Shown here: positions 7,577 through 13,445 of the stretch, piece after piece
Layout of the letters: each line of letters opens with the position of its first letter
Numbering within the stretch: position 1 is the stretch's first letter
Source: a virus
Lineage: Duplodnaviria > Caudoviricetes
Reading direction: 5' to 3' (one strand)
DNA: 36,564 bases
Virus record (IMG/VR): IMGVR_UViG_3300030330_002743
Location: 1-36,564 of that record
Program-made: the position numbers and the translations under genes
Notes under the pieces: generated by a model
Database searches by the model: none
Told to the model about the DNA's origin: nothing
What the model saw: the letters and a program-made list of their open reading frames with translations, nothing else

Positions 7577-8200
7577 TTGGATCTTCCTTATCTGAAGGGC
7601 GCTCTGACCAAGGACGACCTCCGTCGTAAAGACAAATTTGACTATCTCCCGTGGGCCAAGTGCCTACAGATCGTCAATGAAAAAGCTCCTGGCTGGATGC
7701 CAGAACGTGGTGAGATCTGCCATGCCGCAGATACATCCGTCTGGATTCAAGTCCGCTGGGTTCATGTCAGCGGCGAGGCCAAAACTCCTTGGTTTGATTA
7801 CGCTCTCCGCGACTTCCGTAACAAGGCTGTTTTGGCAGACAAAGCAACAGCTAAAGCGATCTGCGACGCCTCCCGTCGTGCTTACTGTGCTTCTGCTGCT
7901 GCCTTCTTCTCACTCAACTACGAAACGTATGTTGACGAGGAGTTTGAGCCACAGGAAGATGCACCGGCCCCACGAGCATCAGCAACAACGACATCAGCCG
8001 ACGTTGGACCTTCCGTTGAGGAAGTGCAAGGCGTTCTGATTGATCTGCTGGCTAAAGCTGATGCTGGCAAGGTCTCCACTTACCTGGACATGCGGGCTAA
8101 GAAATTTGGCCTGACTAAACAGGTGCGCGGTAGCTGGATTGCTGCGATGTCCATTGATCAATTGCAAATTTGTATTGATGAACTCAACGCGGCCAAGTAA
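7577..8200 (+). CDS. single-strand annealing protein (Sak/DUF1071, Rad52-like)
   Basis: DYLPWA...DFRNKAV...ICDASRRAYCA-A-FF-L pattern typical of Sak-type recombinases; a partner exonuclease is nearby. Confidence 0.7.
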   Translation: MDLPYLKGALTKDDLRRKDKFDYLPWAKCLQIVNEKAPGWMPERGEICHAADTSVWIQVRWVHVSGEAKTPWFDYALRDFRNKAVLADKATAKAICDASRRAYCASAAAFFSLNYETYVDEEFEPQEDAPAPRASATTTSADVGPSVEEVQGVLIDLLAKADAGKVSTYLDMRAKKFGLTKQVRGSWIAAMSIDQLQICIDELNAAK

Positions 8201-8360
8201 AGAGCCCAAGGTGCGCATTACCTTGATGCTTGACGCTGACGCTCTTCCTTATGTGGAGAACGAAGTTCAGCGGCGCTACTCCGATCCAGACAAGCGCGTT
8301 ACCAAGTCAAGTCTGATCAACGAAATTATCCGCGCTCACTACGAGATCCTTCATGGCTGA
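8178..8360 (+). CDS. small ribbon-helix-helix-like DNA-binding protein
   Basis: KVRITLMLD...TKSSLINEIIRAHY. Confidence 0.6.
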   Translation: MNSTRPSKEPKVRITLMLDADALPYVENEVQRRYSDPDKRVTKSSLINEIIRAHYEILHG

Positions 8361-8709
8361 CTACAACCCTGCTCTGTCGCTGCCTGTCTCTTGGACCGTC
8401 AAGGACAACACCTATGACGACAAGGACAAGAACCCCAAGACCCTGTCATTGTTCGTGCCGCTTGAAGCTGCTCATCAATTTGCACAGCATTTGATGAATC
8501 TGGCTGACAGCACTGAGAAGCACAAGCAAGGCAAAGCTTGGGATTACAGCGCCAACGAAGCGCGTGAAGTGTCTGGCTTCTACATCAACGCCAAGGGCAA
8601 GTCCGGCAAGTACGGCGACTTTGGCAACATCAATCCTGCCAAGGTTGAAACGCCCTGCAGCACCGGCAACTGCCCAGTGCCTAGCTCTAACAGCGAGCTG
8701 CCCTTCTGA
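8353..8709 (+). CDS. hypothetical protein, possibly ssDNA-binding
   Basis: Follows the annealase and ends in the SSB-like tail SELPF. Confidence 0.6.
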   Translation: MADYNPALSLPVSWTVKDNTYDDKDKNPKTLSLFVPLEAAHQFAQHLMNLADSTEKHKQGKAWDYSANEAREVSGFYINAKGKSGKYGDFGNINPAKVETPCSTGNCPVPSSNSELPF

Positions 8710-8710
8710 T

Positions 8711-8907
8711 GTTTGGGGCAGGGGCGTTAGCTTATCGCGCCAGATGAATGCTGCCGTAGTTAGATCTTGGATACTGCTCGGGCCATGCGGTATCTCACAC
8801 CAAGGTCGGCTCAGAATAGGTGGGCGTCGTCCCCTGCTGGTGGTGCCGAGGGTCGCTGATTCCCTTTCATAGGCCAGTGGACAAGCATTCTCCGTAAGTC
8901 CCCAAAC
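8711..8907 (+). ncRNA. candidate ~200-nt structured RNA
   Basis: Closing stem GTTTGGGG/CCCCAAAC plus nested stems GAATGCT/AGCATTC, GATCTTGG/CCAAGGTC, ATACTGC/GCGGTAT, GTCC/GGAC, CTGG/CCAG and GAGGG/CCCTT. Confidence 0.6.
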
Positions 8908-8929
8908 TTTTCTCTCCCATCTCTCTCTC

Positions 8930-9124
8930 ATGAAAAGGATTCATCGTGACCATCTGCCTCAAGGAGCAAAGACCGTCAGTGGCAAGCGCGGCGGTCAGTA
9001 TTACATCAACGAAAACGGGGAAAAGGTCTATATCACTTCAAGCACTCGCCAGCCCCAGAGATCTTTTAAAGCCAAGAGGGGTGCCTTCTTACGCTGGTTG
9101 GAGTCCCAAAATGAAGTCAACTGA
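8930..9124 (+). CDS. hypothetical protein (basic; GKRGGQYYINENGEKVY motif)
   Basis: ATG after a CT-rich leader; the G-x-RGG-x-YY-x-N-x-x-G-x-K-x-Y pattern resembles PBCV-type basic adaptor domains. Confidence 0.7.
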   Translation: MKRIHRDHLPQGAKTVSGKRGGQYYINENGEKVYITSSTRQPQRSFKAKRGAFLRWLESQNEVN

Positions 9125-9266
9125 TATCGCTAACAAGGTGCGTGAGGTGGCTCGTCGCTATCCCGAACTGCACCCGTACACCATCTCTTTGAAGATGGAG
9201 GTTTTGTTTGGCATCAAGATTGGGGCCAAGCGAATCAAGCAGATTCTTAATGGAGAGGAGTCATGA
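9111..9266 (+). CDS. hypothetical protein (MKSTDIANKVREV...)
   Basis: ATG at 9111 with GGAG upstream; stop overlaps the next ATG (ATGA). Confidence 0.65.
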   Translation: MKSTDIANKVREVARRYPELHPYTISLKMEVLFGIKIGAKRIKQILNGEES

Positions 9267-13097: not shown

Positions 13098-13445
13098 TCA
13101 GAATGCGTACTTGCTTCCGAGCTTGATGCCATAACCAGCATCAACATCCTTGAACTTGGCGTAGCTGGCCTCGGTGTACAGGCTCATCTTTTCGCTGACA
13201 TTGGCGGACACGCCGGTCTTGCCAGAGAAGCCCCACTCACTGTCAACGGTGTCGTTTGACAGAGCAGGACCTGCTTGGATGTACCAAGGGCCTTCTTCCC
13301 AGCCAACGTGCAGTTCCAGTGAAGATCCGGCGAACTTTGAGCCGGAAAATCCAGCGTTGTACTCCGGATTCAAGTACACGCTTTGTGCCATTGCGCTGGT
13401 GCCGGTCAGTGCCAAAGCACCAACCAAGGAAAGTTGTTTAAGCAT
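13098..13445 (-). CDS. small outer-membrane beta-barrel-like protein
   Basis: Signal peptide, amphipathic beta strands and C-terminal G-x-K-Y-x-F beta-signal. Confidence 0.75.
   Translation of the reverse strand: MLKQLSLVGALALTGTSAMAQSVYLNPEYNAGFSGSKFAGSSLELHVGWEEGPWYIQAGPALSNDTVDSEWGFSGKTGVSANVSEKMSLYTEASYAKFKDVDAGYGIKLGSKYAF

Follow-up and report, generated by a model that had tools for sequence, protein, structure and literature searches.

A conserved structured RNA, apparently uncatalogued, behind a likely SSB gene in one clade of marine siphoviruses

Directly behind the stop codon of an early gene, the genome of a lambda-like siphovirus carries 197 nt that a previous sequence-only reading described as a highly paired RNA with alternative pairings. 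Is this stretch a functional RNA, does it belong to a known family, and what might it do for the phage? The window analysed here is a whole 36.6-kb virus record (36,564 nt), estimated to be 98% complete, with a large terminase of the lambda gpA type. The element (8711-8907, + strand) lies within an early run of + strand genes in the order Sak-like gene, small ORF, 118-aa gene, element, 64-aa gene and two more ORFs. The Sak-like annealing gene (7577-8200, +) matches PHROG 659 with an E value of 4e-5. The upstream 118-aa gene (8353-8709, +) has 33 homologues that terminate with an acidic tail and F, and this tail and the neighbouring genes suggest that its product is likely an SSB. The protein gives a beta-rich model and has no Pfam or PHROG match and no match in a fold search (best Z 2.9 or lower); in the Atlas, DUF736 comes up as a weak lead with a score of 0.88 (21% of the cluster). 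In this clade only, a conserved C-x-x-G-N-C-P motif precedes the acidic-F tail.

On its downstream side, the element is followed by a C/U-rich leader of 22 nt (8908-8929, +; 22-25 nt in 10 of 11 copies), which lacks a Shine-Dalgarno-like purine run, and by the gene of a basic 64-aa protein (8930-9124, +; pI 10.5). With six homologue clusters at 64-89% identity, the 64-aa product is, judged by its conservation, a real protein. It shows a weak PBCV basic-adaptor-like beta-hairpin (PF08789, E 0.032, under the family cut-off; Atlas 0.87) and no match in a fold search, where the best Z values of the proteins flanking the element were 2.9 and 2.1. In the available part of PMC3281028, the PBCV basic adaptor is listed as a domain on DNA-associated chlorovirus kinases. 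At its four-fold sites, the 64-aa gene shows unusual conservation (18-22 of 21-23, compared to ~65-70% in the Sak-like and SSB-like genes). In addition, a GTG-start frame (8946-9266, +) that covers most of this gene is free of stops over 106 codons in all 11 copies and might possibly be an overlapping gene or a longer form of ORF 9111-9266.

The start and end of the element are clearly defined. The TGA of the upstream gene occupies 8707-8709, and after a single base the closing helix 8711-8718/8900-8907 begins, so that the earlier description of an element starting just past a stop codon and closed by its own paired ends was read correctly from the sequence. The six nested stems proposed at that time are also all complementary, three of them with G-U pairs, and most are included in the minimum free energy (MFE) structure of the window copy. 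The element measures 197 nt in the window and 197-201 nt across seven complete copies (197, 199, 200 and 201 nt); as these lengths differ out of frame, the element is not coding. The overlapping ORFs 8564-8872 (+) and 8446-8931 (-) were rejected as coding, since they are broken or out of frame in relatives, and a conserved translated ORF, the coding alternative raised by the earlier reading, was looked for in the relatives and not found. Complementarity of the element to the rest of the genome reaches at best only 10-11 nt (E at least 1.3).

Metagenomes were scanned with aligned sequences of the 64-aa protein, and the best 80 of 293 matching stretches were examined. Among these are 11 full-length homologues (L080-L090), and all 11 contigs carry the element or the portion of it that they span. 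One copy (L080) is identical to the window, six (L083-L087 and L089) are complete with 83-87% identity, and three (L081, L082 and L090) are clipped by the contig start. In the remaining one, L088, the first ~30 nt of the element are replaced by unrelated sequence. The stretch upstream of this truncated RNA (L088:1-470) has no relation to the phage studied here and resembles by eye what we take to be a bacterial galactose-1-phosphate uridylyltransferase gene; the contig is probably chimeric. The alignment, termed A5, consists of the window and nine loci, leaving out L080 and L088; it samples about five distinct lineages, because L085, L087 and L089 are near-identical. Beyond these contigs, 15 public runs contain at least half of the words of the kilobase around the element, and the runs with this region are marine or aquatic metagenomes.

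Compared to the window, 63-65 of 69 positions in the junctions and conserved loops match, as do 89-95 of 104 stem positions, whereas the four-fold codon sites of the neighbouring genes match at 0.69-0.77. The element is thus under selection as a sequence, with junctions more conserved than silent sites. The variable loops and the bulge match at only 9-11 of 24 positions, a set picked after viewing the alignment, which favours the contrast; two loops vary freely, those of hairpins P2 and P7. Directly outside the closing helix P1, identity to the relatives falls. The 64-aa gene follows the element in 10 of 11 loci, all from one clade, and in L082 another ORF sits between the two, directly after P1, showing that the downstream neighbour of the element can be swapped. 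This extra ORF (L082:46-326) has ~75 codons, and a short post-P1 word recurs ahead of the leader of the 64-aa gene, which suggests gene exchange at microhomology. Conversely, the beta-hairpin motif of the 64-aa protein occurs in 69 other metagenome loci, none of which carries the RNA. The sequence-only reading took the small basic protein for a possible partner of the RNA; its conservation and charge would suit such a role, but the inserted ORF in L082 and the 69 loci lacking the RNA speak against it, so that the protein is at most a candidate partner.

One homologue of the upstream gene lies in a Prochlorococcaceae MAG (42%), and the terminase matches those of Synechococcus phages S-CBS1/3 at ~45%, but other phages match equally well. 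A host test with gene 13101-13445 was negative in all 61 genomes, and a picocyanobacterial host is only inferred.

Is the pairing itself conserved? A 58-pair model on A5 leaves 99.8% of 469 cells paired, with one broken cell, which is terminal, and eight pairs (16 cells) spread over six of nine helices have changed on both sides. None of 500 shuffles reaches this covariation and slid registers pair only 38-48% of cells, with the proviso that the model was tuned on the same sequences and that the shuffle control ignores relatedness, which can inflate the result. The 43 pairs of the sequence-only reading are themselves 98.0% paired with five double changes; the comparison of relatives for compensatory changes that it had called for thus bears out its highly paired RNA, whose stems are kept by double-sided changes. 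Outside the alignment, one Logan contig (X13 record 3) retains all pairs at three double changes (A8771G with T8793C, T8772G with A8792T and G8776A with C8788T), but it is mismatched at 8764, and a further change, at 8808, disrupts one pair of the model. The same contig carries T8749C, and A8887G was seen in L082 as well as in contigs from two RNA runs; if linked, the two changes would make a double change in helix P3. Overall, pairing on the + strand is conserved.

The folding energy of the window copy alone is at chance level (-71.6 kcal/mol, z -0.43, with 60 of 200 shuffles folding equally well), and six full-length relatives reach z scores of -1.5 to -2.5. The - strand folds 9-14 kcal/mol worse than the + strand in all seven complete copies, and many of the base exchanges run through G-U, where G-U/A-U/G-C exchanges pair on the + strand only. 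The functional strand is therefore the + strand, and an RNA is likelier than single-stranded DNA. A single-stranded DNA structure serving as an origin or recombination signal would suit the annealing and SSB-like genes next to it, which act on single-stranded DNA, and covariation does not reliably tell single-stranded DNA from RNA, as noted in the available part of PMC5737381; a mere chance fold would agree with the shuffle-level energy in the window. We nevertheless give these two explanations the least credence of all, as the G-U-mediated exchanges and the poorer folding of the - strand suit RNA, and covariation and junction conservation exclude a chance fold. Altogether, covariation, junction conservation, pairing exchanges confined to the + strand and copy lengths indicate that 8711-8907 is almost certainly a functional structured non-coding RNA.

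In the predicted fold, helix P1 (8711-8718 with 8900-8907, +) seals the two ends with a mean pair probability of 0.92-0.98, and identity drops immediately past its 3' strand. Its terminal pair G8711-C8907 is U-A in five copies and U.C in one, and the remaining seven pairs are invariant. P1, the variable hairpin P2 and helix P3 meet at a three-way junction in the model. P2 (8723-8741, +; 8723-8727/8737-8741), which was absent from the sequence-only reading, is paired in all cells (100%), has a free loop and is the richest in double-sided changes (three of five pairs). P3 (8746-8752 with 8884-8890, +) closes the inner multiloop; in the alignment it has one one-sided change and zero double changes, and A8887G lies in its 3' strand. 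The invariant stretch 8891-8899 (+) forms a single-stranded junction ahead of the 3' strand of P1 across the aligned copies.

The long arm P4 (8758-8811, +) consists of 11 bp (8758-8761/8808-8811 and 8763-8769/8801-8807), a 6-nt bulge and another 8 bp (8770-8777/8787-8794), capped by an invariant 9-nt loop (8778-8786). In the alignment, it shows the exchange of U8772-A8792 to C-G in addition to four one-sided changes, and none is broken. The previously proposed stem 8763-8770/8800-8807 is retained for the most part, except for its last pair: G8770-C8800 is broken in five of eight copies, and G8770 pairs with C8794. The loop 8778-8786 contains a 4-base palindrome that could kiss a second RNA copy (self-duplex -8.7 kcal/mol, no covariation). 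Kissing of this loop with 8842-8849 (4+3 bp), at the P6 internal loop, would be no more than a guess: both sides are invariant, without covariation, and shuffled junctions do as well (p 0.36).

Between P4 and P6 lies a conserved junction (8812-8833, +), for which the preferred pairing combines 8753-8755/8819-8821 with a 3-bp hairpin 8822-8824/8831-8833. This pairing fits all aligned variants, and G8823-C8832 swaps with A-U in 9 of 9 copies; the predicted probability of the 3-bp hairpin is at most 0.05, and the two short helices show no or one double change. A rival pairing, 8809-8813/8821-8825, is broken in L090, yet it is 1-5 kcal/mol more stable. C8832 covaries also with 8879, the register of the sequence-only reading, in 8 of 9 copies. 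Beyond the junction (8834-8880, +), P6 (8834-8841/8873-8880) is followed by an invariant internal loop (8842-8847 and 8867-8872) and by P7 (8848-8852/8862-8866) with its free loop; the changes here are C8837-G8877 to U-A, G8850-C8864 to A-U and two one-sided ones, with none broken. The earlier stem 8829-8832/8879-8882 is complementary and has one double change, but it also has one broken cell (in L090) and competes with the longer register 8834-8841/8873-8880, which has one double change and none broken. From this model we infer a compact core, in which P3, the P4 arm, the short hairpin and the P6 arm would meet in a nearly seamless four-way junction.

Alternative pairings complicate this picture. 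The sequence-only reading had suggested that 8718-8724 and 8831-8837 form a pseudoknot or a switch. The two segments are indeed complementary and pair in all seven complete copies, varying only by wobble changes. In the final fold, this helix cannot be a pseudoknot, because it occupies bases needed by P1, P2 and P6; moreover, none of its seven pairs has changed on both sides, and its probability is at most 0.03 in the full-length ensembles of all seven complete copies. A second exclusive helix, 8743-8755/8819-8831 (12 bp), competes with P3, and both it and P3 are kept; it dominates the predicted full-length ensemble over P3 in four of seven copies, with zero double changes. As the MFE structure of the 5' ~135 nt contains part of the first helix in seven of seven complete copies and the second in six of seven, a co-transcriptional intermediate is plausible; the stability of these fragment folds is unremarkable (z -1.6 to +0.1).

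Such helices could make the element a two-state switch in cis, riboswitch-like or protein-sensing, in which the 5' two-thirds would form 8717-8722/8833-8838 and 8743-8755/8819-8831 and refold to P1, P3 and P6, while a ligand, a protein or a ribosome at the upstream stop would bias read-through, processing or downstream translation. All 18 alternative pairs are kept bar one terminal cell, and in 10 of 11 copies the element stands 22-25 nt ahead of a start codon. On the other hand, the 18 pairs include no double-sided change, one-sided transitions keep a pair compatible nearly by definition, and no riboswitch model matches. Nor was an output seen through which a switch would act: a terminator-like site was looked for at the 3' end of the element and not found, and the U-run past P1 is not retained in relatives. 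A helix between 8862-8870 and the start codon of the 64-aa gene (-9.0 kcal/mol) is unremarkable against other gene starts, eight of nine control sites scoring stronger (one of the nine, 13098, is no true + strand start), and it is lost in L090 (-0.7 kcal/mol). We thus regard the switch as rather unlikely.

Instead, we tentatively favour, at somewhat less than an even chance, an RNA that is released from the early transcript with ends sealed by P1 and that binds a protein via a conserved tertiary surface. It would be made within an early recombination transcript alongside the Sak-like and SSB-like genes; this co-transcription is suggested by the common strand, by the single base between stop codon and element and by the absence of any promoter-like site found between them. 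Host nucleases may trim the RNA out of the transcript, with P1 stopping the trimming at the 3' side, and the invariant junction bases might bind a putative protein, for which the RNA would serve as a decoy or scaffold. The paired ends, the fall of identity outside P1 and the ORF inserted right after P1 in L082 mark the element as self-contained, and the missing switch outputs add to the case for a released RNA. Contigs from four RNA runs cover parts of the region; they reveal no ends, strand or level and possibly derive from DNA. Against release, one RNA-library contig (X17 record 10, 8575-9110) spans the upstream gene, the element and the downstream gene. Further points against it are that only about five lineages stand behind it, that the core is ambiguous, with P3 versus its exclusive alternative fitting a switch equally well, and that the simpler rival of the four-way-junction model is favoured over it by 1-5 kcal/mol.

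Does the element belong to a known class? At the Rfam 15 gathering score, none of 4227 families matched the window, and at E values up to 10 over 8500-9200 there was one weak match outside the element and none to it; the Rfam check urged by the sequence-only reading, covering manA, wcaG and PhotoRC (PhotoRC-I/II), therefore returned no family. A single-family search of the genome with manA (RF01745) found no match either. The position is not that of manA: in T4-like phages or gamma-proteobacteria, the latter precedes mannose/fructose, nucleotide, photosynthesis or ibpA genes (PMC2864571), whereas the element stands by an unassigned 64-aa gene in a genome with a lambda gpA-like terminase. As the earlier reading had judged, the element is no tRNA, tmRNA or RNase P RNA. 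ARAGORN reports 0 genes, the single candidate for a tRNA-like loop (8853-8861) varies freely, and the element lacks a CCA end. The type A RNase P RNA model (RF00010) gave no match here, while its controls exceeded the cut-off in 8 of 14 genomes. The group I intron core model (RF00028) gave no match, and the element is intergenic and interrupts no gene. Likewise, the c-di-AMP, M-box and T-box riboswitch models (RF00379, RF00380 and RF00230) gave no match, whereas the controls of each model exceeded the cut-off in 2 of 14 genomes. We had presumed short resemblances to T-box, RNase P, M-box, c-di-AMP, hairpin and hammerhead RNAs; the first four failed these family-model tests, and the hairpin- and hammerhead-type loop motifs, judged by eye against their consensus, do not fit. 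With its non-coding sequence, covariation-supported stems and conserved junctions, the element has the features of an orphan phage ncRNA.

The element belongs to none of manA, wcaG, GOLLD and ROOL, and resembles them as a covariation-defined orphan motif. As far as the accessible parts of PMC2864571 and PMC9964418 describe them, manA (RF01745; model of 192 positions) and wcaG (RF01761) are likewise multi-stem RNAs of ~200 nt from marine phages, with function unassigned and a possible pseudoknot with weak support. By contrast, manA occurs in T4-like phages, where its sites are potential 5' UTRs of genes for sugars, nucleotides or photosynthesis (PMC2864571, in part); the element has no model match, belongs to a lambda-like siphovirus and is flanked by a likely SSB gene and a 64-aa gene. 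GOLLD and ROOL, in the portion consulted of 10.1101/2024.12.08.627333, are also covariation-defined orphan structured RNAs of phages with no assigned function, but they are 659 to >800 nt long, often lie near tRNA islands and form cages, compared to 197 nt in a genome without tRNA (ARAGORN). The raiA motif, in the available text of PMC5737381, is similarly a structured RNA near an upstream gene of the same strand that was argued not to be a downstream cis regulator; it is bacterial (Firmicutes and Actinobacteria), whereas the element has no Rfam match. The candidate RNAs of PMC10690425, of which part was accessible, rest on the same class of evidence from the same source collection (IMG/VR) and share the association with SSB genes, but the gp32 RNAs lie upstream of the SSB gene and the element downstream of a likely one. 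Six motif strings of the element are absent from seven searchable supplementary files of PMC10690425, which cover its 10,006 candidates only in part. A literature search found no description of the element in the texts accessible, and it may be listed as an unnamed candidate in the supplements of PMC10690425 or PMC5737381. The element is thus a structured RNA confined, as far as found, to one marine siphovirus clade and apparently uncatalogued.

Searches beyond the clade agree with this narrow distribution. A blastn search of annotated phages with window and variant queries gave only three short chance matches, and three motif scans of viral contigs (63 loci, 119 loci with 53 of 64 parts scanned, and 24 loci) gave zero homologues by blast or model. 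A model of the element, R1, found no copy in 86 protein-selected viral loci, in 69 metagenome loci with the small-protein motif only, in 50 whole virus records (50 of 80 loci), or in 151 + 151 genomes sampled at family and phylum level around the Prochlorococcaceae MAG; as R1 was built on near-identical sequences (effective number 1.01), these nulls mean not found rather than absent.

What do other phages hold at this slot? Of 81 loci whose homologue of the upstream gene is more distant (43-56% among those listed), none carries the element, and several of them (e.g. L200, L208 and L235) show, by eye, a U-tailed simple hairpin right past the stop. Two identical records (L226:826-1038 and L227:2824-3036) have a different closed-end fold of ~213 nt after the homologue, with a 10-bp closing stem, a folding z of -3.6, stops in six of six frames and no Rfam match. 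Its overall layout is similar to that of the element, yet R1 gives it no score, and homology was rejected on this negative result and on shared words (p 0.015 against the window, 0.10 against L085). Further copies of this fold were sought in 58 loci, where only the same two records appeared. Since a hairpin or a different fold stands there in other phages, exchangeable RNA modules seem to be tolerated at this slot.

This setting bears on two further explanations. Small ribozymes are often found at such intergenic places in operons, and a new self-cleaving or processing ribozyme could cut the polycistronic early mRNA and uncouple upstream from downstream genes. The element is intergenic within a phage operon, has invariant junctions and dispensable variable hairpins, and stands where relatives have a terminator-like hairpin; no Rfam ribozyme family matches, the hairpin and hammerhead motifs do not fit by eye, and its conserved core, at ~170 nt, exceeds the size of the small nucleolytic ribozymes, so that we consider a ribozyme improbable. 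Antitermination RNA elements such as put and EAR suggest instead an RNA acting on the elongating RNA polymerase, or else the element may stabilise the upstream mRNA. The coding strand, the early operon and the place right behind a gene likely needed in bulk would suit both, but only ~800 nt of same-strand genes remain ahead of convergent genes. As for a stabiliser, a simple hairpin suffices in relatives at the same position, so a conserved fold of seven helices exceeds the needs of stabilisation. Either role is very improbable, though less so than the DNA structure or chance fold.

Large structured RNAs with invariant junctions have been a source of ribozymes, riboswitches and RNA-protein machines. 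A bolder and unlikely extension is that the element is the first of a new catalytic or ligand-sensing class of four-way-junction RNAs in marine siphoviruses, which would refold between two conserved states during transcription, with the slot behind phage SSB genes as a recurring launch site, where L226/L227 have a second, different RNA. As described in PMC2864571 and PMC9964418, the cyanophage examples of manA and wcaG come from T4-like phages; by contrast, the element comes from a small, widespread marine siphovirus. With 197 nt, defined ends and natural variants, it is amenable to in vitro work on cleavage, refolding, ligand or protein binding and three-dimensional structure. In addition, low-GC relatives (L001-L015) have a conserved intergenic stretch ~270-350 nt past the stop of the homologous gene, which lies between two opposite-strand ORFs and forms two hairpins with compensatory variation by eye.
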